DNA of 64,000 nucleotides, taken from positions 238-64,237 of the forward strand of contig JAADII010000144.1 in assembly GCA_013151415.1 (NCBI GenBank), written 5' to 3'. The translations under genes and the position numbers were made by a program. Source of the stretch: Chloroflexota bacterium (GTDB taxonomy: Bacteria > Chloroflexota > Anaerolineae > J102). This document shows, one piece after another, positions 7,644 through 20,212 of the stretch (position 1 is its first letter; each line of letters starts with the position of its first letter). The notes below the pieces were generated by a model. It was not told where the DNA came from and searched no databases. It saw nothing but the letters and a program-made list of their open reading frames with translations.

Positions 7644-9554
7644 GCCACCACCTCCCCCATCTCCGACACGTCATACCCGCCCAACGCGGATACGGCCTGA
7701 CGGAAATGCTCGCTGCGGATGATCTCCAACATGGGCGCGAGCAAGTCGCTTTCATAATAGGCTTTGGGAATGATCAATTGATACTTCTCCTCGAACAGGG
7801 GAACGAAATCCAGGTCCAGGGCCCGCGCCGCGGCCAGAATGCCCAATCCGCAATCGGCCGCGCCGCTGGCCACCGCGGCCGCCACGGCCAGATGTGTGAA
7901 CTCGGCCCGCTCGTAGCCCTGAATCTGGTCGGGATCGATGCCTTTTTGCTTGAGCTGATAATCGAGTAGCACGCGCGTGCCCGCGCCGCGCTGGCGATTG
8001 ATGAACACGACATCGGGCCGCGTCAGGTCTTCCAAACTGCGGATGTTCTTGGGATTGCCTTTGGGCGTGATCAATCCCTGCGTGCGGCCCACGAATCCCA
8101 ACACGACCACCGGCATGTTGGGTAGATAGCGTTGGATGTAACCGAGATTATACTCGCCCGTTTCCTCGTCCAACAGGTGCGAACCCGCGAAATGGGCCTC
8201 CCCGCGGCGCAAAGCCAGCAGACCGCTAAGCGAACCGACATTGCCCGAGCTGAGTGAACGGTCGGGACGCTCACGGCGCAATTGATCGGCCAGAAGGTCG
8301 AGGGTGAGATCGTGGCTTCCCAGGTGGACAATGGTCTGATCGATGACATGGGGCGGTCTCAACAACTCGACCGTCACCCTGTCACCCGCGTTCAACCCCT
8401 CGGAAAAGCGGGGGATGTGGGCGATGCCGTCGGCCCGCACCATCGACATGAGCACGCCCGCGCCGCGCGGCAAGGGCGTGGCCACGACGCGCTCGCCCAC
8501 CCGCCCAAGTCACGCGCATGAACTCATCCTGGCCCATGGGCGAGAGCACCTTGCGGGTGATGGTGGCCTCGACCGTGAGCCGCGGCTCGATGGTTTGGCC
8601 AACCCAGTGTTGCAAGAGCGGCTTCACCAGCAATTCAAAGGTGATCATGGCGCTGACCGGAAAGCCGGGGATGCCCACCAAAGGTTTGCCCTGCGCGTGG
8701 CCCAACACCACGGGATGTCCGGGCCGAATGGCGATGCCATGCACCACCACTTCGCCCAGGTCCTCGAAAATGCGGGCCGTGTAGTCCTCGGAACCGGCCG
8801 ACGACCCTGCGTTGACCACCACCAGATCATGATCTTCCAACGCGGCCGCCACCGCGCGCTTGATGGCCTCGTAATCGTCTGCGATCATGGGCAGACGATT
8901 CGCATCCGCGCCCCAGTCCTCGGCCATCGCGGCCAGGACGATGGAGTTGAACTCGATGATGTCGCCCGGTTTCAGCTCGGATCCGGGCCGCACCAGCTCG
9001 GTTCCTGTGGGCAGGATGGCGATGCGGGGCCGGCGGTAGACCTGCACGTGGGTGTGACCGCTTCCCGTGATCGCGCCCAAATCTTGCGGTCGCAGCCGAT
9101 GATTGGCCGGAACCACCAGTTCGGTGGCCACGATGTCCTCGCCCATGACGCGCACATTGTCCCAGGGCGGAACCGAGGCCAGGATTTCAATCTCGGGCGC
9201 GTCCTCAGGTCCCAGACGTTGCGCCTCTTCGACCGGGATCACCGCGTCGAATCCGTCGGGGATGGGATCGCCGGTGTCCACGTAGAGGGCTTGCTGACCG
9301 ATTTTCAGGCGTTTGGGGCGGGTGAGGGTGGCGCCGGCCGTGTCGGACGCGCGCACCGCGTAGCCATCCATGGCCGCGGAATGATAGTGCGGAACTGAAA
9401 TGCGCGCCCACACCGGCGCCGCGGTGACGCGGCCGTTCGCGTCGCCGACGAACACCGACTCCGCGGGCAATTTGCGCAACGCGCCGACTTGGTTCAGCGC
9501 CTCGCGCCAGGCCGATATGGCTTCATCGAGGGGGATGTCGTGGAGATAGGTCAT
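7640..9554 (-). pseudogene. moeA: MoeA-PBP (LysR-type substrate-binding) fusion molybdopterin biosynthesis protein, frameshifted near 8505
   Basis: AAMDGYAV, TGDPIP, GSSAGSEDY, IRPGHP, GIPGFPVSA in one frame; VVATPLPRGAG, GSHD, FINRQRGAGTR continue in another frame; may be a sequencing error. Confidence 0.8.
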
Positions 9555-9599
9555 TGCGGGAAGAGGGGGTTTGGGGTAGAATAAGGCGAGGAGGCTATT

Positions 9600-10013
9600 A
9601 TGAGTGTTCAAACGATGACCATACAATTGCCATCGGAGCTTTACGAATATCTCGAACGTAGAGCGAAAAATTCGCGACGTTCGGTGAATGAAGAAGTTGT
9701 GGAGGCAATCGCTATCGCTGCTCAGGAAAGGGCGCAACTGTCTCCAGAGATGGAGTCTGTTTTGGATCAGCTCAATTATATGGACGACGCCACACTTTGG
9801 CGCATGGCTCGAAGTCGCCTATCCGAGGAAGAGGCGCGCCGACTAGAGGAATTGAACTGGAAACAACAGCGGGAAGGGTTGACGATGGAAGAGGAAGAGG
9901 AGCGTGATATGCTGCTCTGGCAATATGATCGTCGTCTCCTGGTGCGTGCGAAAGCTATGGCTCTGCTCAAAGAACGCGGTCACGACATCAGCGAGTTGCT
10001 TGCACCTGTATGA
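9600..10013 (+). CDS. Ribbon-helix-helix (Arc-like) putative antitoxin
   Basis: MTIQLPSELYEYLERRAKNSRRSVNEEV; AGGAGG SD; ATGA overlap with the HNH gene. Confidence 0.7.
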   Translation: MSVQTMTIQLPSELYEYLERRAKNSRRSVNEEVVEAIAIAAQERAQLSPEMESVLDQLNYMDDATLWRMARSRLSEEEARRLEELNWKQQREGLTMEEEEERDMLLWQYDRRLLVRAKAMALLKERGHDISELLAPV

Positions 10014-10438
10014 GCCCCGGCTATATTTCGGCAAAGTTGCGAGCGCGAGTGCGGGCGCAGGCTCAGCACCGGTGCGGATATTGCTTGACCCCAGAGGTAT
10101 TGGTGGGGATGGAAATGGAGATCGATCACATTATTCCTCTGTCATTGGGTGGATCGGACGAAGAAAGTAATCTTTGGCTTGCTTGTCCTCAATGCAACAG
10201 GCATAAAGGCGACCAGGTTTCCGTTGTTGACCCGGTGACGCTTGAATTGGTTCATATATTCAATCCGCGCGAGCAAAAGTGGGACGAGCATTTTACATGG
10301 TCTCTGAGCGGTGAATATATCCTTGGTTTGACTCCGGTTGGTCGCGCTACTGTAAGCGCATTGCAACTCAATCGTGCGATACTGGTGGAGGCGCGCCGTT
10401 TTTGGGCTCAAGTAGGGCGTCATCCGGCAACTTTTTGA
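10010..10438 (+). CDS. HNH endonuclease
   Basis: CGYC...EIDHIIPLSLGGSDEESNLWLACPQCNRHKG; FNPR..W.EHF; GRATV..LQLN. Confidence 0.9.
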   Translation: MSPGYISAKLRARVRAQAQHRCGYCLTPEVLVGMEMEIDHIIPLSLGGSDEESNLWLACPQCNRHKGDQVSVVDPVTLELVHIFNPREQKWDEHFTWSLSGEYILGLTPVGRATVSALQLNRAILVEARRFWAQVGRHPATF

Positions 10439-10442
10439 GTCC

Positions 10443-11681
10443 TCATTGATGTAACGTCACCGTGACCCAGGCGCCCTGTTCGATGCCGAGGCTGTCGAGG
10501 GGCACGCGCACGACGCCGTCAGAGTGGACAAGCGTATAGATGAGATTGGACTTGCCGAACACGGGGGCGGCCCAAAGTTCGTGGTCGCGCGTCTCCAGGC
10601 GCACCTGGATGTGGTCTTCGCGGCCCGCGGCGCTGCTGATCTGACGGCTGAGGCGGGCCTGCACCTGCGGCTTGAACGCGGCGTGCGGGTCCGCGCCCAG
10701 GGCCAGACGGATGGCCGGGCTGACGAAAAGGTCGAAGAGCACCATCGCACTGACGGGATTGCCGGGCAGGCCGAAGATGGGTTTGCCGTCGGCCACGGCC
10801 ACAATGGTGGGCTTGCCGGGACGAATGGAGATGCCATGCGCGAGGATGCCCGGTTCGCCCATGCCGGCGATCACATCCACGCTCATGTCGCGATAGCTCA
10901 CCGACGAACCCGCGCTCAGGGTGACGATGTCGCATGTCTCTTTGGCGCGGCGCACGGCCTCTTCCAACGCCTCGCGGCGGTCGGGAATGATGCCGAATGG
11001 GACGGGATCGCCGCCCGCGCGCAGGGTCAGGGCCGAGAGCGTGTAGGAGTTGATGTCGCGAACCTGGCCGGGGCCGGCGGTTTGATCGGGTGGGATGACT
11101 TCGTCGCCGGTGGAGATAATGGCCACGCGCGGGGGTCGCGCGACCGCGATGTCGGTGAGCCCCAGCGCCAACAGGCCGCCGATGTCCTGCGGCCGCAGAC
11201 GATGACCCGCGGATAAAATCGGTTCGCCCTTGCGCACATCCTCGCCCACCTGGATCACATTCTCGCCCACCGCGACCGCGCCCAGCACTTCGATGCTGCG
11301 CTCGTCGGCCATCTGCGTGTTTTCGATCATCACCACCGCGTCCGCGCCCGGCGGGATCATGCCGCCGGTGTGCACGATGGCGGCCTGGCCCACGCGAATT
11401 TCGATCTCGGCCCGTTCGCCCATGGGCACTTCGCCCACGATGTCGAGAAACGCGGGCAGGCCGGGCGACGCGCCGTATGTGTCTTTCGCGCGCACCGCGT
11501 AGCCATCGACCGTGGAGCGGGGAAACTCGGGCAGGTCGTGCGGCGCGCGCGGCGCTTCGGCCAGGAAGCGATCCAGGGCCTGGGTGGTGGGAATGCGTTC
11601 GGGTTGCGGTTGCGGTTGGTAGTGCTCGACGAACTGTCGCCAGGCGTCGGCCGGGGTGAGGACGTTGAAGAATTCGGTCAT
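10443..11681 (-). CDS. moeA: Molybdopterin molybdotransferase MoeA (gephyrin-like)
   Basis: RSTVDGYAV, TGGMIPPGADAVVMIE, STGDE, RPGKPT, GLPGNPVSA; start taken at MTEFFNV. Confidence 0.92.
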   Translation of the reverse strand: MTEFFNVLTPADAWRQFVEHYQPQPQPERIPTTQALDRFLAEAPRAPHDLPEFPRSTVDGYAVRAKDTYGASPGLPAFLDIVGEVPMGERAEIEIRVGQAAIVHTGGMIPPGADAVVMIENTQMADERSIEVLGAVAVGENVIQVGEDVRKGEPILSAGHRLRPQDIGGLLALGLTDIAVARPPRVAIISTGDEVIPPDQTAGPGQVRDINSYTLSALTLRAGGDPVPFGIIPDRREALEEAVRRAKETCDIVTLSAGSSVSYRDMSVDVIAGMGEPGILAHGISIRPGKPTIVAVADGKPIFGLPGNPVSAMVLFDLFVSPAIRLALGADPHAAFKPQVQARLSRQISSAAGREDHIQVRLETRDHELWAAPVFGKSNLIYTLVHSDGVVRVPLDSLGIEQGAWVTVTLHQ

Positions 11682-11751
11682 GGGAGGTGATTGTTTAGGG
11701 GGTTGCGCGGAGCGTAGTTCGTCGCGCGTGTTGGATAAGTTGTTGCGAGAA

Positions 11752-12220
11752 GGACTTTTGCAAACAGGCGTCACGGGCGGTCGCCCGTTGATACTAATGA
11801 AAATCGCTTGCGCCGACCAACGTAGACCAAAGTAGACGATGGGACCATAGGACGAAGAGACCATGGCCGAACCTAACCCCATCGTCCTATCGTCTTATGT
11901 CTTATCGTCTATTTTCAAAGCAGGTGACGAAAACGTGATACGCAAGGATTTGGCTCGAAAACGTTTTCAAGCCGAAATAGGACGGTTTAGGGCGAAAAAT
12001 GGGCTTAAATCGGGGTGTTTTTTTGAGCTGATTTGGGATATTTTCCAGGGTTTGAAATCGTTTTCAGAGTAGGCTTCACGGGCGACCGCCCGCTGATACC
12101 GATGAAAGGGACGATGGGACCATGGGACGATGAGACCATGGCCAAGCCTCCCCCCATCGTCCTATCGTCCATCGTCTATCGTCTATTTTCAAAGCAATCC
12201 AACGGTGGGCTTGCCCGCGC
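11752..12220. repeat. Mosaic intergenic repeat cluster (tandem MITE-like units separated by REP-like hairpins)
   Basis: Near-duplicate units 11790-11924 and 12095-12199 (GACGATGGGACC...CCCATCGTCCTATCGTC...ATTTTCAAAGCA); hairpins CGGGCGGTCGCCCG, CGGGCGACCGCCCG, GGGCTTGCCC. Confidence 0.8.
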
Positions 12221-12315: not shown

Positions 12316-12753
12316 TCAGGAGGACTCCGCCGCGCGTAAATAGCGTTCGACGGCGTCGGCGAAGCGTTCGAAATCGTGCAGATGTCGCTTGAGGATGCCG
12401 TAGACCAGAGCGTCATCGATTCTGGCGTAATCGTGCACGACCAGATTACGAAATCCGGCCATTTTTTGCATTTTGCGGCTGAGATCCGGCGACAGCACGC
12501 CCTCCTCCTCGAGCACCTGAAAGCTCTCGCGATAGGTTTCTGCAAGCCGAAAACCGCGTTCACTGATGAGCCGCTGACCAATGTCGTGACAGATTTCAAT
12601 GGCGACTTGCAATGAGCGTTCAATGGCCCTCTTCAACCTAATGTTGTCGCGATATTCATCAAAACGGTTGATTCGATCGCGCTCGTTTTTGAGATATGCG
12701 ATCTCATCCATCAACATGCGCAAGCGTTCGTTGATAATGTCGTTTTCTTTCAC
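12316..12753 (-). CDS. hepT: HepT-like HEPN RNase toxin (DUF86)
   Basis: AIERSLQVAIE..DI, MAGFRNLVVHDY (RX4HXY); GGAGG SD before the GTG start. Confidence 0.9.
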   Translation of the reverse strand: MKENDIINERLRMLMDEIAYLKNERDRINRFDEYRDNIRLKRAIERSLQVAIEICHDIGQRLISERGFRLAETYRESFQVLEEEGVLSPDLSRKMQKMAGFRNLVVHDYARIDDALVYGILKRHLHDFERFADAVERYLRAAESS

Positions 12754-13219
12754 CGAATCGACCCTCCCGGATGTCTTTCCGAAGAACCTGAGTCACGCGA
12801 TCGTGAAGCATTTTCCAATCATAATAGTGTTTAACCGTGCGCACCTCGAAGTCGATCCGTTTCTTTTTATCGCCCTCGTATAGAAGATAGCCGTGACGCA
12901 AAACCTGAAATTGCAGCAGAATGGGCGCGCGATTGAGGATGATAAGATCGAGCGACTTGCCCTGTACGAAAGGCTCTATCGCCATTTCCAGTTCCATGCG
13001 CCGGTCGAATCGCGCCAGCGCGGCGTCCACATCATCGTCGGCCGCGGGAGCCTGATCCAGCAGCAAGGCGATGTCCATATCCGAACCAGGCCGCGGCCGA
13101 CCGGCCGCGTGCGAACCGAACAGATACGCGGCGATGACGTCGGGCTGGGTGCGAAGATGGTCGCGCAGACCCTCCACATCCAGGCCGGGGATGGTCGCGT
13201 CGGCGGGAAGAAAACGCAT
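12704..13219 (-). CDS. mntA: MntA-type minimal nucleotidyltransferase antitoxin
   Basis: AYLFGSHAAGRPRPGSDMDIA (GSX10DXD), DLIILNRAP; overlaps hepT; start uncertain (13219 or 13246). Confidence 0.88.
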   Translation of the reverse strand: MRFLPADATIPGLDVEGLRDHLRTQPDVIAAYLFGSHAAGRPRPGSDMDIALLLDQAPAADDDVDAALARFDRRMELEMAIEPFVQGKSLDLIILNRAPILLQFQVLRHGYLLYEGDKKKRIDFEVRTVKHYYDWKMLHDRVTQVLRKDIREGRFGERKRHYQRTLAHVDG

Positions 13220-13357
13220 GGGCGAGGAGAAGGGTGTAGGATGCAAGGAGCAATACAGAGCGATGGGAGAGATGGGGAGATGGGAATGAAATCGTCCATC
13301 GTCTCATCGTCCCGAATATTAGCACAAAAGAGCGGATCGGAGCAATGATGTGGCGCT

Positions 13358-14245
13358 TTAGCCGCTTCCCCGCTGCGCGAGCGCGACGCCGAGCAGGACG
13401 AGCAGCCCGCCCGCGGCCTGAACGGGCAACAAGGCTTCATCCAGCAGAAGCCAGGCGAACAACGCGGCGATGACCGGTTGCATGAGCAACATGACCGAGG
13501 TGAGGGAGGCCGGCAATTGGGCCAGCGAAAACGCGATCAAGCCCTGGCCGGTCGCGTGCACCAGCCAGGCCAGAGCGAAGAGGATCAGCCAGCCCAACCA
13601 GCCGCTCGGCCAAAATGGCTCGCCCGTGATGCGGGTGACGATGAACAACGCGGCCGCGGCCACCAACGCGCTGATCAGCATGATGAAACCGGTGTGATAA
13701 TGCCCGCGCAATTGCTTGATGCTGAGAATGTAGCCCGCATAGAAGACCGCGGTGAGCAGCCCCAACCCGTCGCCCAGCAACGATCCCCCCTCGCGCCCGG
13801 TCGTGGACCACACCATCAATCCCACCCCGGCCAGGGCCGCGGCCAGGCCGATCACGAACAAAACGCGGAAACGCTCGCCAAACAGTCGCCACGCCAACAG
13901 GCTGACCAATATGGGAGCCATGTTGGGGAAGAAGGTGGCGTTGGCGATGGTGGTCAGCCGAATGGACCAATGCCAAACTGTGAGATCGCCGGCAAAGAAG
14001 AGGCCGGGAAGCAGCAACCACAGCCAGGCTCGCTTATCCTTGCGCTCGGGCGCGTTTATCGGCCCGGACGCGCGCATCCACAGCCAAAGCGCGGGCGCGG
14101 CCAGCAACATGCGCCAGAAGGCCACGGCAATAGGGCCTACATCGCTGACGCGCACCAAAATAGGAGCAAAGGCAATGGCGCTCACCCCGGCCAGAACCGC
14201 GATGAGCGCCACATGCCGCGCATTGGATTTTCGAACAATGTTCAT
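13358..14245 (-). CDS. DMT/EamA family transporter
   Basis: About 10 TM in two EamA repeats; AFWRMLLA, GDGLGLLTAVFYAGY, QPVIAALFAW. Confidence 0.9.
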   Translation of the reverse strand: MNIVRKSNARHVALIAVLAGVSAIAFAPILVRVSDVGPIAVAFWRMLLAAPALWLWMRASGPINAPERKDKRAWLWLLLPGLFFAGDLTVWHWSIRLTTIANATFFPNMAPILVSLLAWRLFGERFRVLFVIGLAAALAGVGLMVWSTTGREGGSLLGDGLGLLTAVFYAGYILSIKQLRGHYHTGFIMLISALVAAAALFIVTRITGEPFWPSGWLGWLILFALAWLVHATGQGLIAFSLAQLPASLTSVMLLMQPVIAALFAWLLLDEALLPVQAAGGLLVLLGVALAQRGSG

Positions 14246-14480: not shown

Positions 14481-17400
14481 ATGCTCAATCCTCTATCTCG
14501 CTTTATGGATCGTGAAAGATTGAAGATTTTGTGGCGGCTGTTGACCCTCATTGGGTTGGCGGGGCTGGTCGCTTTGATCGCAGCCTGGATATGGCGTTGG
14601 CGGCGACGTTGGGCGGTGGGCGTGAAGGAATCGCCCGCGGCGCCGATTTCGTTGGTTGAGCGCGTCGAAGGTTTGAGCGAGGCCGAAGCCGCTGCGCGAC
14701 GACAACCCGATGTTGACAACGCGCTTTTATTCAAGCCGCCTCGCTCTCGCAAGCAGATCATTCGCGAGAATGCGTTCACGATTTTCAACCTTGGTTTGGT
14801 GGGCATTATCTTTGTGCAATTGTTGTTGGGCAAGCCGTTGGACGCCTTGATGAGCGTGGGCGTGCTCATCTTTACCGTTGCAGTGAATGTGGGGCAGGAA
14901 GAGTTTGCCCGGTTGCGATTGCGCAGGCTGTTGCAAGAGTCGCGACCCAAAGCCACCGTGATTCGCGAACGCAAGGTGCGTAGCATCGATGCGGCCGAGA
15001 TCGTGGTGGGCGACATGGTGGCCGTGGGACCGGGCGATTTGATCTTGGTGGATGGTCGCGTGGTGGGCGAAGGCCAGCTTTTTGTGGATGAATCGGCTCT
15101 TTTTGGCGGAAGCGGAAGAGTGGCGAAGGCCGCTGGCGATGAGGTGTACGCTGGCGGCATTTGCCTACATGGTCGCGCCGTCATCCAAACCGAGCGCGTC
15201 GGCTCTCAGCGTCGTGCGATGGCGCGATTGCAAGAGCTGGAAAAGGCCCCGCAAGAACTGACGCCCATCGAGCGCACGGTGCAAACTGTGCTGCGCGGGT
15301 TGCTGGTGGTGGTGGTCCTGCTCGTCGCATTCTTGCTGATCTCCTATTTTCGCTTCGATCTTCCGATCGAGAACGATAAAATCATCGACGCGATCGGCGT
15401 CATTTTCAGCATTGCGCCAGCCGGTCTCTTTTTCATGATCGTGCTAACATACGCGGGTTCGACCGTCGATTTGGCGCAACTGGGCGTGTTGGTGCACCGC
15501 GCGCGATCGGTGGAGTCGTTGGCCCAACTCGATGTGATTTGTTTTGGCAAGGAGGGCTTTCTTACGGGCGCTCAGGTCGAGCTCAAATCGCCTCCTGGTC
15601 GCGCCCAGCCTTCACCGCTAAGCGAGGCGAAAATCCGCCAGATCGTGGGCGATTTCGCGCGCAGCATTTCTTTGGATAACACACTAACCCAGGCCCTGCA
15701 GGCTTCGTTCGAGGGTGAAAAGCGCGATATCGTGGAGGAATCGCCTTTTCTCGCGGTTCATGGTTGGAGCGCCGTCGTGTTCGATAATGACGATTTACGC
15801 GGAACATACGTGCTCGGTGAGCAAACTGTTTTGCAGCCTTATTTGCTCGAAGAGATGACAGAGGACCGCGAGCCAGAGGAGCGCCAGAGGCCGGCCATTT
15901 TCAAACGAGCCGCGTCCTGGAGCGGCGGTTTGACGCGTTTGCTCCGGCGCAAAGATAAAACAGCCCAGCCGAGCGCTGGCGTTGCGGGCAAGGGTGAGAG
16001 ATCGCAAAAGGGCGATCCGTTGGCCGCGGATTTGCGTCGCGAAGAAAAAACGTCGCTTTTGGCGAGCGGAGGGCGGCGCTCGGAAAATGAGCTCGCGGCC
16101 GGTGAAGCGGGCGCAAAAGAGGCAGAACCCGAAGATGTTGGGACGCGCGGCCGGCTGCTCGCGCGCATTCGTCGCGAGGCGTTGCGAATATTGCCTCGCG
16201 GCAGGACCGATCAACGCAATGCGTTGGAGGCTGAGGAGATGGCGGTGATGGATGAGCGGCGATTGCTCTTCGCCTACCTTCCTCTTGTAGAACGCTTGCA
16301 AGTCGGCGAAGAGTTGCATTTGCCTCAAGGCCTTATCCCTTTGGCCATGCTCGAATATCAAGAGAAAATCCGTCCCGAGGCCGTGGAGGCTGTGCGCATA
16401 TTTGCCGAGCGCGGCGTGGAGATCAAGGCTTTCATCAGCGATTCCACTGAAAGATCGCAAACCATTCTCCGCCGCGTGTTGAGACCCCTCTCTCTGGCGG
16501 CTGAAGAGAGCGATGTGATTTCTGCATCGGCTTTATCTTCCCTTGCGGATAATGCATTTCAAGAGGCGGTGCAAAGCAATGTCATTTTTGCTGGCGTCAC
16601 GCCGACTTTGGCCGCTCGCGTGGTGCAAAGTTTGCGAGAGAGAGGCATGAAAGTGGGAGTGATTGGTGATGGCGTGAGCGACATCCCGGCCATGATGCAA
16701 GCGGATCTGGCTATCACCACCAAGGACGGAAGCACGGCCGCGTTAAGCATGGCCGATATTGTGCTTCTCGACCGCTCTCCTCTGGTGGCTTCTAAAATGA
16801 TCGATAAGGGGCAGCGCATTGTCAATGGCCTTTTGAATGTGCTCAAGCTCTATCTCACCCAGATTCTCTACCTGTTGCTTCTTGTGTTGATTTTGCTGTT
16901 TACGGTGCGAGGATTTCCATACACGGGCGCTCAGGGGGGCGTGATCGCCGCGTTCACCATTTCTGTTCCTGGCGTGGCCATCTCGTTGTTGGCGCGACCG
17001 GGGCGTCCTCCCATGCTGCGCTTGGGGCGACTGTTGGCCGCATTTGTGTTGCCGGCGGGGCTCACCATCGCCATGGCGGGCGCCGCGGTTTACATTATCT
17101 TTGTCCAACGCAACGACCACGCGTACGCGCAGGTGGCGTTGACTCACGCCCTCATGGTTATGGGCGCCTTGTTGGTGACGTTTATTCATCCGCCGTGGCG
17201 ATGGCCGCTGTGGCGTCGCCCTCGCGCGGTCGATTTTGCGCCTGCGCTGATAGCGTTTCTTTCTTTGGGGCTTTTCGTCTTGATCACATACATTCCGTTG
17301 GCCCAAAAATTGCTCAAAATCCATCCGCTGGCATTTCCCCTGGAATACCTTTTCATTGTCGCGGTCGCGATGGTTTGGGCGCTCCTCTTTGTTTTTCTAT

Positions 17401-17489
17401 GGCTCTTGATTTGGCTGTTGTCGATGGCGGTGACTCATGGCAGAAGAGCCGTCCCCCGCTCTCTCGCTCCTTCGTCCTTTTTCCGCTGA
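14481..17489 (+). CDS. P-type ATPase homolog (CtpE-like) with degenerate catalytic motifs
   Basis: P-type architecture (IVVGD..GD...VDG, VDESAL, ESLAQLDVICF, EKIRPEA, GDGVSD.PAM..AD) but DKTGT reads GKEGF, TGES reads FGGS and PEGL reads PAGL. Confidence 0.85.
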   Translation: MLNPLSRFMDRERLKILWRLLTLIGLAGLVALIAAWIWRWRRRWAVGVKESPAAPISLVERVEGLSEAEAAARRQPDVDNALLFKPPRSRKQIIRENAFTIFNLGLVGIIFVQLLLGKPLDALMSVGVLIFTVAVNVGQEEFARLRLRRLLQESRPKATVIRERKVRSIDAAEIVVGDMVAVGPGDLILVDGRVVGEGQLFVDESALFGGSGRVAKAAGDEVYAGGICLHGRAVIQTERVGSQRRAMARLQELEKAPQELTPIERTVQTVLRGLLVVVVLLVAFLLISYFRFDLPIENDKIIDAIGVIFSIAPAGLFFMIVLTYAGSTVDLAQLGVLVHRARSVESLAQLDVICFGKEGFLTGAQVELKSPPGRAQPSPLSEAKIRQIVGDFARSISLDNTLTQALQASFEGEKRDIVEESPFLAVHGWSAVVFDNDDLRGTYVLGEQTVLQPYLLEEMTEDREPEERQRPAIFKRAASWSGGLTRLLRRKDKTAQPSAGVAGKGERSQKGDPLAADLRREEKTSLLASGGRRSENELAAGEAGAKEAEPEDVGTRGRLLARIRREALRILPRGRTDQRNALEAEEMAVMDERRLLFAYLPLVERLQVGEELHLPQGLIPLAMLEYQEKIRPEAVEAVRIFAERGVEIKAFISDSTERSQTILRRVLRPLSLAAEESDVISASALSSLADNAFQEAVQSNVIFAGVTPTLAARVVQSLRERGMKVGVIGDGVSDIPAMMQADLAITTKDGSTAALSMADIVLLDRSPLVASKMIDKGQRIVNGLLNVLKLYLTQILYLLLLVLILLFTVRGFPYTGAQGGVIAAFTISVPGVAISLLARPGRPPMLRLGRLLAAFVLPAGLTIAMAGAAVYIIFVQRNDHAYAQVALTHALMVMGALLVTFIHPPWRWPLWRRPRAVDFAPALIAFLSLGLFVLITYIPLAQKLLKIHPLAFPLEYLFIVAVAMVWALLFVFLWLLIWLLSMAVTHGRRAVPRSLAPSSFFR

Positions 17490-17629: not shown

Positions 17630-18745
17630 ATGTCTCTTCCCACCACCTATGTTCGCATCGATTTGAACGCAATTGGCCAGAATGTGCAAGCGTTGAAACG
17701 TTGCGTAGGGCCGCGAGTGGTCTTGATGGCGGTGGTCAAGGCCAATGCATATGGGCACGGCATTGTCGAAACCGCGCGAGCGGCGTTGGCCAATGGCGCC
17801 GAGCGGTTGGCCGTGGCCCGGGTTTCCGAAGGCGTTCAGTTGCGGCGGGCCGGCGTGCGCGCGCCTATCCTGGTGTTGGGCTATCACACCTCAGCCGAAG
17901 CCGAGGCCGTAGTCCAATATGACCTGATCGCGACCGTCAATTCTCTGGAAATGGCTCATTCTCTGGCCGAACAGGCTCGCCGTCGCGATAAACGCGTCAT
18001 GGTGCACATTAAAGTGGACACTGGCATGGGGCGTTTTGGCCTGCTACCCCGCGAAGCGCTTCCCTTCTGGCGAGCGATGGCCGCCATGCCCCGTTTTGAT
18101 GTGGAGGGGTTGTGGACGCATTTCGCTACGGCCGATGAACGCGATAAGGGGTATGCGCGACGCCAGCTGCGCATTTTTCTCGATGTGGCGCGGGCTATCG
18201 AGCAGGCTGGATTCACCATCGCCATACGACACGCGGCGAACAGTGCGGCTCTTCTGGATTTGCCCGAAAGTCATCTCGACATGGTGCGACCGGGCATCGC
18301 GATTTATGGCCTTCGTCCGTCGAACGAAGTGGAGCCGAGCGTTCCTCTGCGCCCCGCGCTTTCGCTTATCAGCCATGTGGGTCGGGTGCGCATGCTGCCG
18401 GCCGGGTCTAGCGTGAGCTATGGCCGCACATTTATCACCGAGCGCGCCATGCGCGTGGCTTTGGTTCCGGTGGGTTATGGCGATGGTTATCCTCGCATAC
18501 TCTCCAATCGCGGAGAAGCGCTGGTCCGCGGGAGACGCGCTCGCATTTTGGGCCGCGTGTGCATGGACAACCTGGTCTTGGACGTGGATCATATTCCTGA
18601 TGTGCGCGAAGGCGATGAAGTCGTGCTCATTGGGCGTCAGGGTGGAGCCAAGATCACGGCAGAGGAAGTGGCCGGATGGGCCGAAACCATTAACTATGAG
18701 GTGACCACCGCTTTGTTGCCCCGTTCGCCACGCATTTATGTTTAA
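17630..18745 (+). CDS. alr: Alanine racemase
   Basis: AVVKANAYGHG (PLP lysine), HIKVDTGMGRFG, VSYG, GYGDG, GRVCMD. Confidence 0.95.
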   Translation: MSLPTTYVRIDLNAIGQNVQALKRCVGPRVVLMAVVKANAYGHGIVETARAALANGAERLAVARVSEGVQLRRAGVRAPILVLGYHTSAEAEAVVQYDLIATVNSLEMAHSLAEQARRRDKRVMVHIKVDTGMGRFGLLPREALPFWRAMAAMPRFDVEGLWTHFATADERDKGYARRQLRIFLDVARAIEQAGFTIAIRHAANSAALLDLPESHLDMVRPGIAIYGLRPSNEVEPSVPLRPALSLISHVGRVRMLPAGSSVSYGRTFITERAMRVALVPVGYGDGYPRILSNRGEALVRGRRARILGRVCMDNLVLDVDHIPDVREGDEVVLIGRQGGAKITAEEVAGWAETINYEVTTALLPRSPRIYV

Positions 18746-18760
18746 CACCCACACACCATC

Positions 18761-20212
18761 ATGTTTCTTCTCTCTGTCATGGCTCATATTCTTCCGGCCT
18801 GGGGTTCTCGTCTCTTCATTTCGCTTCTTTTGCTTCTCCTAACGCCTGTCTGGAACGCGGCTCTTTCGCAACCTGCTTCGCAAACCCAAACCCTGTTCTT
18901 GCCCATGCAGTGGCGCGGGAATCCATCGGTGTTGGGACCGATGATCGAGCTGAGGGGCTTGTGGGTGAATCGATTCGATTGGACAACCCTGGGACGGGCG
19001 GCGGATCCGGCCAAAATCGATGAAATCGTGACCAATGCAGCGGACGCGGGCTTCAATGTGATTTTCTTTCAGGTGCGCGGGGTCGCCGACGCCTATTACG
19101 CGCCCGGTTTGGAGCCGTGGGCGCAACGGGTGAGCGGGCAGACATTGGGAAAGGCGCCCGAGCCGTATTGGGACCCCTTGGCCTATCTCATTGCCAAAGC
19201 GCATGAACGGGGTTTGCAAGTCCACGCCTATTTCAATGTCTATCCTGTGGCTCAAGGCGGTGATTTCTGTGCGGAAGAGCCAGACCCACTGGCTCAGCCC
19301 CAGCCGCTTTATCACCAACTGGCTCAACAACATGGCGTCACCGAAGGAAAAGTCAATGGTCTGCAATGGCGTCAAGGCGGTCAGGTGTTATGCGGGCAAT
19401 ATCGCGAAATGAGCCCGGCCTCGCGATTTGGTCAAAACCACATCATCCGCGTGGCTCTGGATATTGTGTGGAGATACGATGTCGATGGCGTCCATCTCGA
19501 TCGCGTGCGTTATGCGGCGGCCAACGCCTCGTGCGATCCGGTGAGTCTTTGTCGTTATCACGGATTGAGTGAAAACTGCGATCCGGTTCCAGCCTGCGCG
19601 TTGGATGAGACGTATCGAGATTGGCAACGACAACAAGTGAGTGAGTTTGTGCATCGGCTTTCTATGAAGTTGAAGGCCGTAAAGCCCGATCTATGGATCT
19701 CGGCGGCGGTCCTGCCCGTTTATCGCGATGAGCCCGCTTTACAGTTGCCCGGTCATCCCCAAGAGGCCTATAACGACGCTTATCAAGATTCGAAGGGTTG
19801 GTTGAGCCAAGGATATGTGGACGCGATCATGCCTTTGATCTACCCGGCCGTGTTCCGTTGTCCTGATGACAGCTATTGGACCTTGGACATTTGGCGCAGG
19901 CTGACCGCCGATTATCTAGCCGACGCCGGCGAAGGCGCGGTGATCCCTGGCATTGGCGCGGGGTATTGCACATTCGATGAGATCGAAGCTCGCATCGCGG
20001 CCGCACGCGAATTGGGCGCCATCGGGCACGCCATTTTTTCTTACCGCGGTCTATTGAACAATGGCTATTTCGACGATCTTCGATGGGGTCCATATCGCGT
20101 TCCGGCCGCGCCTCCGCAACCGCCTTCGGTTGAAAATAGCGAACCGATGATTTCTCCTTGGTTCGATGCGCATGATGGCGCGCGCGTGGATGCGCAAAAA
20201 GCGACGAGATGA
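18761..20212 (+). CDS. Secreted glycoside hydrolase-like family 10 (GHL10/DUF187, YddW-like)
   Basis: Signal peptide; ELRGLWV, FFQVRG..DAYY, WDPLAYLI..AHERGLQVHAY, YDVDGVHLD. Confidence 0.85.
   Translation: MFLLSVMAHILPAWGSRLFISLLLLLLTPVWNAALSQPASQTQTLFLPMQWRGNPSVLGPMIELRGLWVNRFDWTTLGRAADPAKIDEIVTNAADAGFNVIFFQVRGVADAYYAPGLEPWAQRVSGQTLGKAPEPYWDPLAYLIAKAHERGLQVHAYFNVYPVAQGGDFCAEEPDPLAQPQPLYHQLAQQHGVTEGKVNGLQWRQGGQVLCGQYREMSPASRFGQNHIIRVALDIVWRYDVDGVHLDRVRYAAANASCDPVSLCRYHGLSENCDPVPACALDETYRDWQRQQVSEFVHRLSMKLKAVKPDLWISAAVLPVYRDEPALQLPGHPQEAYNDAYQDSKGWLSQGYVDAIMPLIYPAVFRCPDDSYWTLDIWRRLTADYLADAGEGAVIPGIGAGYCTFDEIEARIAAARELGAIGHAIFSYRGLLNNGYFDDLRWGPYRVPAAPPQPPSVENSEPMISPWFDAHDGARVDAQKATR

Follow-up and report, generated by a model that had tools for sequence, protein, structure and literature searches.

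A probable pseudoenzyme clade of P-type ATPase homologues without the phosphorylated aspartate, almost confined to Chloroflexota

The aspartyl-phosphate is the defining feature of the P-type ATPases. Here we describe an intact open reading frame (ORF) for a P-type ATPase homologue which carries glycine in place of the phosphorylated aspartate. The ORF lies in a stretch of 64,000 nucleotides from a Chloroflexota bacterium (GenBank assembly GCA_013151415.1, contig JAADII010000144.1, positions 238 to 64,237) which is called the window. The closest conceptual precedent in the accessible part of the literature is the flippase (P4-ATPase) module of the alveolate guanylate cyclases, P4GC. Some of these modules lack DKTGT (Cryptosporidium, P4GC-beta), and the glutamate of the actuator (A) domain was likewise lost in some P4GC lineages, according to the sections available (PMC13466520). 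As described there, the P-type scaffold was kept after loss of the phospho-aspartate or the A-domain glutamate, presumably in a non-pumping role. The P4GC proteins are eukaryotic, of the P4 type and fused to a cyclase, whereas the window protein is bacterial, P2/P3-like and free-standing. Among bacterial pumps, CtpE of M. smegmatis was described in the accessible text as a Ca2+ uptake pump, belonging to family 23 of the "functionally uncharacterized" bacterial P-type ATPases, with VPEGL in transmembrane helix (TM) 4 and all catalytic motifs (PMC5615198). Of 9,634 P-type ATPases in one survey, only 22 were without an intact DKTGT, and the article treats them as possible errors or oddities (PMC3896382). 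A description of a bacterial P-type ATPase clade without the aspartate was not found in the literature, with thin coverage of subscription journals and supplements.

The ORF extends uninterrupted from 14481 to 17489 on the plus strand, ends with a single terminal stop and encodes a protein of 1002 amino acids (P0001). Translation, Pfam, TIGRFAM models, phmmer against PDB chains, a structure model and Foldseek all contributed to its assignment. Pfam detected E1-E2_ATPase (PF00122, E = 1.7e-31, 109.6 bits, cut-off 28.1) and Hydrolase (PF00702, E = 4.3e-06, 27.7 bits, cut-off 26.4), and no domains beyond those of the ATPase. The generic HAD-IC P-type ATPase model TIGR01494 scored 115 bits at a cut-off of 62.3. 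Every substrate-specific equivalog model was failed by the ORF product. MgtA, the name given by JGI to many of the homologues described below, was rejected as an identity, with 107.1 bits for TIGR01524 at a cut-off of 610.75. By homology and fold the protein belongs to the P-type ATPase superfamily, with A, phosphorylation (P) and nucleotide-binding (N) domains, a membrane domain of ten helices and hidden Markov model scores above threshold. The features of a functional P-type ATPase are lacking, namely the aspartate of DKTGT[LIVM][TI], the TGES loop, and (T/S)GD with the conserved lysine and GDGxND. The protein is a P2/P3-like P-type ATPase homologue without catalytic residues.

The motifs were placed with HMMER/phmmer alignments to the PDB chains of AHA2 (5ksd) and LMCA1 (9euq). 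The segment "dvicfgkegfltg" aligned with "dvlcsdktgtlt" of both pumps. The former phosphorylation motif C(x)DKTGTLT thus reads CFGKEGFLT (residues 354-362, 15540..15566, plus strand, as are all sites in the protein), and the aspartate is Gly356, encoded by the codon 15546-15548. Homologue columns gave the same placement, and a Logan contig agrees at the codon. The dephosphorylation loop of the A domain reads FGGS instead of TGES (residues 208-211, 15102..15113; "esalfggsgrv" aligned with "qsaltgeslpv"). In the P domain the hinge is ISD instead of (T/S)GD (residues 652-654, 16434..16442; "fisd" with "itgd"), Ala711 (16611..16613) occupies the position of a lysine that is invariant in active relatives, and GDGVSD replaces GDGVND (residues 729-734, 16665..16682; "gdgvsd" with "gdgvnd"). 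The substitutions listed in the initial annotation for these four motifs are therefore real, as are the ORF free of stops and frameshifts, the extra N-terminal helix and the charged N-domain insertion, which were reproduced by translation and an AlphaFold2 model.

A word-indexed search returned 497 matches, of which the best 120 were examined (36-48% identity, mostly 930-1010 amino acids). Their source names are "HAD-IC family P-type ATPase" or "magnesium-transporting ATPase" from Anaerolineae or Chloroflexota. Aspartate was absent from the aligned site in all 120, where A (68), S (25), T (11), G (8), V (3) and N (2) were the six most frequent residues. A profile search over 1.84 billion representatives was evaluated for its best 150 matches, each above 500 bits, and 138 rows were tabulated (the window protein and 137 further representatives). 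The aspartate was replaced in 81 rows, 49 had a canonical DKTGT(L/I/V)T, three carried the aspartate in a corrupted motif (P0142, P0185, P0225) and five were fragments without the region. The canonical representatives have about 800-860 amino acids with TGES, (I/L)SGD and GDGVND. JGI applies the name "cation-transporting ATPase E" to relatives of P0200, which is one of these canonical representatives.

A FastTree phylogeny was calculated for 177 rows comprising the window protein, 56 ORFs of related loci and the representatives (both sets with at least 780 amino acids), and the eight other P-type ATPases of the window's own genome. Rows below 780 amino acids and contig-end fragments were excluded from this and the second tree. 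A single clade of 101 rows was recovered with a support of 99, in which 95 rows lack the aspartate and six have it in a corrupted motif (CFDKADTLTG in five, CFDEQCLYGQ in one). This group is called the dead clade. It is adjoined by 66 active-looking rows (support 93), and both groups together have a support of 100. The next branch outward is a P2-like pair including L004 from the window's own genome, followed by P1B pumps. In an IQ-TREE analysis of a 76-row subset (LG+G4, quick search) all 47 dead rows were located on one side of a branch with a Shimodaira-Hasegawa-like approximate likelihood ratio of 100. The active rows were not resolved as a clade in this second tree and may enclose the dead clade, as judged from these sequences.

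For the erosion of the motifs 22 key positions were scored (TGES, DKTGTxT, N-domain phenylalanine and lysine, the arginine of DPPR, (S/T)GD, the P-domain lysine and GDGxND). The active rows keep 18-21 of them and the dead rows 2-13, with 11 in the window protein and 5-9 in the six aspartate-bearing dead rows. Three changes are nearly clade-wide. Aspartate at position 356 is retained in 6% of the 101 dead rows, the glycine of TGD in 3% (100% in active rows), and the N-domain lysine (residue 428) in 0%, being replaced by glycine in 97 of the 101. The TGES glutamate is kept in 16% of the dead rows versus 97% of the active ones, and the asparagine of GDGVND in 18%. Other losses are patchy, since K711 persists in 41% of the dead rows (100% of the active rows), D654 in 43%, D730 in 53% and D734 in 85%. 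The residue at the aspartate site varies (S 32, A 23, G 15, T 11 and I 7 of 101), and therefore no replacement nucleophile is evident. Early-branching or most-conserving members of the dead clade (P0126, P0130, P0139, L033) still read (G/S)KTGTLT. This fits a course in which the nucleophile would have been lost first, with independent decay of the other positions afterwards. Five rows (L038, L039, L040, L046, P0142) form a tight dead subclade with CFDKADTLTG, where aspartate and lysine are present and the rest of the motif is corrupted. GDGxND is absent from this subclade, nine of the 22 key positions are kept, and the aspartate was either retained or regained.

Selection was estimated from the ratio of nonsynonymous to synonymous substitution rates (dN/dS) by the Nei-Gojobori method for ten dead-clade and seven active pairs, with per-domain values from six pairs per group. 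The ratio was 0.06-0.31 in the dead pairs versus 0.08-0.21 in the active pairs. In the dead proteins it amounted to 0.07-0.28 for TM1-10, 0.11-0.33 for the P domain, 0.05-0.31 for the N domain and 0.11-0.46 for the A domain, and it was mostly below 0.5 in every structured domain. The active pairs gave 0.05-0.16 for the P domain and 0.04-0.23 for the transmembrane helices. The N-domain insert of the dead proteins reached 0.16-0.67 in five pairs, and the sixth pair gave no value. Column entropy was higher in dead than in active rows for the P domain (1.87/2.24 versus 1.09/1.39) and the A domain (2.26 versus 1.72). The corresponding values were 1.93 versus 1.86 for TM3-4, 1.89 versus 1.85 for TM5-6, 2.24 versus 2.35 for TM7-10 and 2.17 versus 2.10 for the N domain. 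This indicates that the P and A domains are relaxed, while membrane helices and N-domain fold are conserved as in active pumps. The whole fold is kept under purifying selection in the dead clade. Contig ends truncate 13 of the 48 dead-clade loci, and 31 of the other 35 have open frames of 915-1126 amino acids.

According to the record titles, 44 of the 48 dead-clade loci are from Chloroflexota. These divide into Anaerolineae (26), unclassified (8), Chloroflexia (5), Caldilineae (3) and Ardenticatenia (2). The remaining four comprise one locus each from metagenome-assembled genomes (MAGs) labelled Acidimicrobiia, Zixiibacteriota and Methanosarcinales, and one unlabelled. The three labelled loci are L032, L037 and L052, the last on a contig with a coverage tag of 0.30, and their placement could reflect an error of binning or a horizontal transfer. 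Of 201 evenly sampled genomes from the window's class, 14 had a match at the threshold of E <= 1e-100.

The window protein thus probably (at about 0.8) derives from a CtpE-like (P2/P3-type) P-type ATPase and is catalytically dead yet functional, as a member of an old monophyletic clade that is almost confined to Chloroflexota, mainly Anaerolineae. Clade-wide loss of catalytic residues combined with purifying selection is the operational mark of a pseudoenzyme, and both are seen in these sequences. The initial annotation had proposed a pseudoenzyme in a preserved scaffold rather than random decay; the monophyletic loss, the absence of aspartate from all of the best 120 homologues and the low dN/dS bear this out. 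Without the phospho-acceptor aspartate, most of the residues that transfer or remove the phosphoryl group, the dephosphorylation loop and key ligands of nucleotide and phosphate, the clade is, on its sequences, excluded from aspartyl-phosphate formation and from ATP-driven pumping through an E1P/E2P cycle. Several observations weigh against this assignment. In five of the ten dead pairs dS exceeded 1 and was saturated, dN/dS was noisy in short N-terminal segments, where it once reached 1.18, and the entropy comparison is confounded by the unequal sampling depth of the dead and active groups. Four of the 35 complete loci are interrupted (L036, L048, L050, L061). Among the 201 genomes the long single-stretch form was clear in only three (G000, G108, G200), all from the window's family, and no gene partner that would indicate a role is conserved among the loci. 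Finally, the window protein keeps its 11 key positions including K357, G359, T362, R631, D654, D730, G731 and D734, and it is possible that it binds nucleotide or phosphate without turnover.

The AlphaFold2 model was calculated from a 109-row alignment and reached a mean predicted local distance difference test score (pLDDT) of 82 and a predicted template modelling score of 0.80. Besides the A, P and N domains and ten membrane helices, it contains an extra helix at the N-terminus (residues 11-44). Foldseek with this model retrieved LMCA1 as best match (E = 2e-34), followed by SPCA1, Na,K-ATPase, MgtA, SERCA and Pma1, that is, P2/P3 pumps first. The overall fold is the same as in the solved pumps LMCA1 (6zhh, 9evc), AHA2 (5ksd), MgtA (8uy7), SPCA1, SERCA and Na,K-ATPase, with Foldseek E values of 2e-34 to 1e-30, a TM-score of about 0.5 and phmmer E values of 1e-28 to 1e-16. 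The solved pumps differ in having only 14-19% identity to the window protein and in keeping all catalytic motifs. The ESM Atlas returned P-type ATPase clusters only, with a "hypothetical protein" cluster from Chloroflexota at the top.

Two parts were gained by most members of the dead clade. The extra N-terminal transmembrane helix of the model, TM0 (14511..14612), is followed by WRWRRRW, and 76 of the 101 dead rows have a hydrophobic helix at the N-terminus, versus two of the 66 active rows. The second is a charged insert in the N domain (residues 459-588, 15855..16244), rich in E and R, with 28 K/R and 26 D/E in the 137-residue stretch measured. Residues 459-558 and 566-579 are disordered in the model (pLDDT below 50). 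An N-domain insert of at least 80 residues occurs in 83 of the 101 dead rows versus none of the 66 active rows. The column pattern of the 109-row alignment (A1) revealed two conserved basic-hydrophobic segments within it. The first is AIFKRAAS..LTRLLRR (residues 472-490, 15894..15950), and the second is RGRLLARIRREALRILPR (residues 556-573, 16146..16199), with a low-confidence model helix at 559-569. Neither N-terminal helix nor insert is found in the earliest-branching dead pair (P0156 and P0160), and the insert was lost again in a nested short dead subclade (P0161 to P0209). In the membrane domain, an arginine of TM5 in active relatives (92%) corresponds to glutamine in the dead clade (72%), and Leu113 of TM1 (98% in active relatives) is changed to glutamine (69% in the dead clade). 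Fused longer forms were absent at E <= 1e-20 among relatives of 1755-5000 amino acids, which is weak evidence.

Closest to the dead clade among active proteins are pumps of about 800-860 amino acids that bear the JGI name "cation-transporting ATPase E". The initial annotation had spoken of CtpE-like relatives, which fits these names. The dead clade adjoins the "ATPase E" pumps or nests in them in the two trees, neither of which held an authenticated CtpE sequence, and the link to CtpE rests on the source names. Both groups have ten helices in a P2-like architecture and share much of the consensus in the membrane domain. Compared with the CtpE type the window protein lacks the aspartate, TGES, TGD and the P-domain lysine, and has the extra N-terminal helix and the insert of 130 residues. 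In TM4 it reads APAGL instead of the VPEGL given for CtpE in the accessible text (PMC5615198). The PAGL sequence (residues 313-316, 15417..15428) lies within IAPAGLF, which is almost invariant among the best 120 homologues (A312 in 120, P313 in 116). The residue after the TM4 proline is A, S or T in the dead rows versus N, S or Q in the active rows. In the 66 active rows (L056-L080, P0179-P0257) this residue is N in 18, S in 15, Q in 12, A in seven and E in two. Hence the initially annotated change from PEGL to PAGL correctly describes the residues and is not a specific loss of the window protein, since the closest active relatives are mostly without the TM4 glutamate themselves. The active "ATPase E" pumps also have the conserved TM5 arginine (92%) and no aspartate three residues before the TM6 proline. 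Given these three features, their substrate may differ from the Ca2+ reported for CtpE.

If the fold is indeed selected without catalysis, the function would be seated in the conserved membrane domain and would proceed without ATP turnover. The A/P/N headpiece, the extra helix and the amphipathic basic segments of the insert could then serve as a gate, as a membrane or ligand sensor, or as a docking surface. A passive carrier, a channel-like protein or a ligand-binding membrane module, with headpiece and insert as non-enzymatic gate or docking platform, is our tentative proposal for the role. A role as scaffold or regulator of other proteins appears unlikely. The sensor, channel and scramblase roles named in the initial annotation are speculative. 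For the clade as a whole it is conceivable, with more doubt than for the role just named, that it represents a free-standing P-type pseudoenzyme family in which a pump was turned into an ATP-independent carrier, channel or transceptor, gated by headpiece, N-terminal helix and insert under the control of a ligand or the membrane.

A non-catalytic regulatory or scaffolding subunit paired with an active P-type pump is a quite unlikely alternative. Such a partnership would agree with MAGs that hold both a dead copy and active copies of the neighbouring group (L034 with L057/L060; L031 with L071), with the selection still acting on the cytoplasmic domains, and with the ability of P-type pumps to dimerise, as indicated by PDB titles (MgtA dimer, 8uy7). 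The window's genome (97.66% complete) speaks against it, as it encodes eight other P-type ATPases with intact motifs, none of which falls into the neighbouring active group. A regulatory partner of an active CtpE-like pump, as suggested initially, would thus find no such pump there. Similarly, G108 (97% complete) contains a dead copy alone at E <= 1e-100, and clustering of neighbours revealed no P-type ATPase gene as conserved neighbour of the dead-clade genes. With respect to copy number, one MAG appears to have two dead-clade copies on different contigs (L015 and L042), and the same applies to another (L031 and L050). Therefore, dead paralogues appear to be able to coexist in one genome. In two Caldilinea MAG loci (L063:10001-15108 and L070:8468-13518) the 4-5 kb covered by the tblastn match suggest that two P-type ATPase genes lie side by side.

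The initial annotation hinted at a role in the envelope. On this reading the gene would form an operon with those for alanine racemase and the GHL10 hydrolase, and its function would be linked to the envelope. The genes alr (17630-18745, plus strand) and GHL10 hydrolase (18761-20212, plus strand) are indeed co-oriented with the pseudo-pump gene, and the three are closely spaced in the window. By tblastn, 13 window neighbours including both genes were found in none of the 77 related loci, among them L011 and L014, the nearest tree relatives of the window protein. The observed co-orientation thus stands, and the envelope role is very improbable. A scan for promoter consensus sequences near the gene on the plus strand revealed none, and terminator-like sites were at chance level.

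The preferred assignment as a dead descendant of a pump was further compared with an ATP-driven pump that still works by a non-canonical catalytic mechanism. The fold is fully preserved according to model and Foldseek, and some P-domain residues remain in the window copy. HAD-type phosphotransfer needs the aspartate. The residue at the nucleophile site varies freely across the 101 dead rows, the TGD glycine and the N-domain lysine are practically lost at the frequencies given above, and TGES is degenerate; a pump of this kind is extremely improbable. A Logan contig from run X1 (depth 12.4) spans 14481-15695 with codon 15546-15548 unchanged and zero indels, so that the suspected assembly error is not seen; it may stem from the window's own sample, and the evidence from the whole family therefore counts more against an artefact. 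Decay as a pseudogene, or an error of assembly or sequencing, for which the four interrupted loci among 35 could be cited, is refuted by the clade-wide sequence data, with 1002 open codons in the window, 31 of 35 intact loci in a deep clade, dN/dS of 0.06-0.31 and the concordant Logan contig.

The other neighbours of the gene comprise an EamA transporter (13358-14245, minus strand), an IF-2B/MtnA-like gene, a FadR-type regulator, a HepT/nucleotidyltransferase pair, an HNH gene and two moeA genes. The HepT-like RNase (12316-12753, minus strand; PF01934, 6e-32) and the Pol-beta-type nucleotidyltransferase (12704-13246, minus strand; PF18765, 2e-18) overlap, and the pair (12316-13246) has the arrangement of a HEPN/MNT toxin-antitoxin system. 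The HNH endonuclease ORF (10010-10438, plus strand; PF01844, 2e-15) overlaps with its start the end of an upstream ORF of 137 amino acids without Pfam match (9600-10013, plus strand). Together they (9600-10438) are located between two divergent moeA paralogues, 8382-9737 and 10443-11882, both on the minus strand. All-against-all clustering of flanking ORFs revealed no universal partner, the best being present in 11 of 59 loci. Recurring neighbours of the 48 dead-clade loci are subclade-specific small membrane proteins only (Bax1-I, DUF1269, TauE, VTT, DUF308 and a 213-amino-acid protein). The last is a multi-helix membrane protein of 213-216 amino acids without Pfam match. It is encoded directly upstream of the dead ATPase gene on the same strand in four loci of the window's nearest subclade (L011:40-690, L014:9214-9855, L041 and L047), with a gap or overlap of -16 to +21 nucleotides. 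In the window's genome the query used gave no match to it.

The dead clade lacks the aspartate and most of the catalytic apparatus and is nevertheless under selection. It is a deep clade. At 50% identity it counts at least 81 representatives, and its loci in species genomes number 48. As such it would offer a natural test of what the pump scaffold is capable of without its engine, and a stepwise record of the conversion of a primary transporter into a pseudoenzyme. For the genomes of Chloroflexota this means that the automatic labels "magnesium-transporting ATPase" and "HAD-IC family P-type ATPase" over-predict the pumping capacity.

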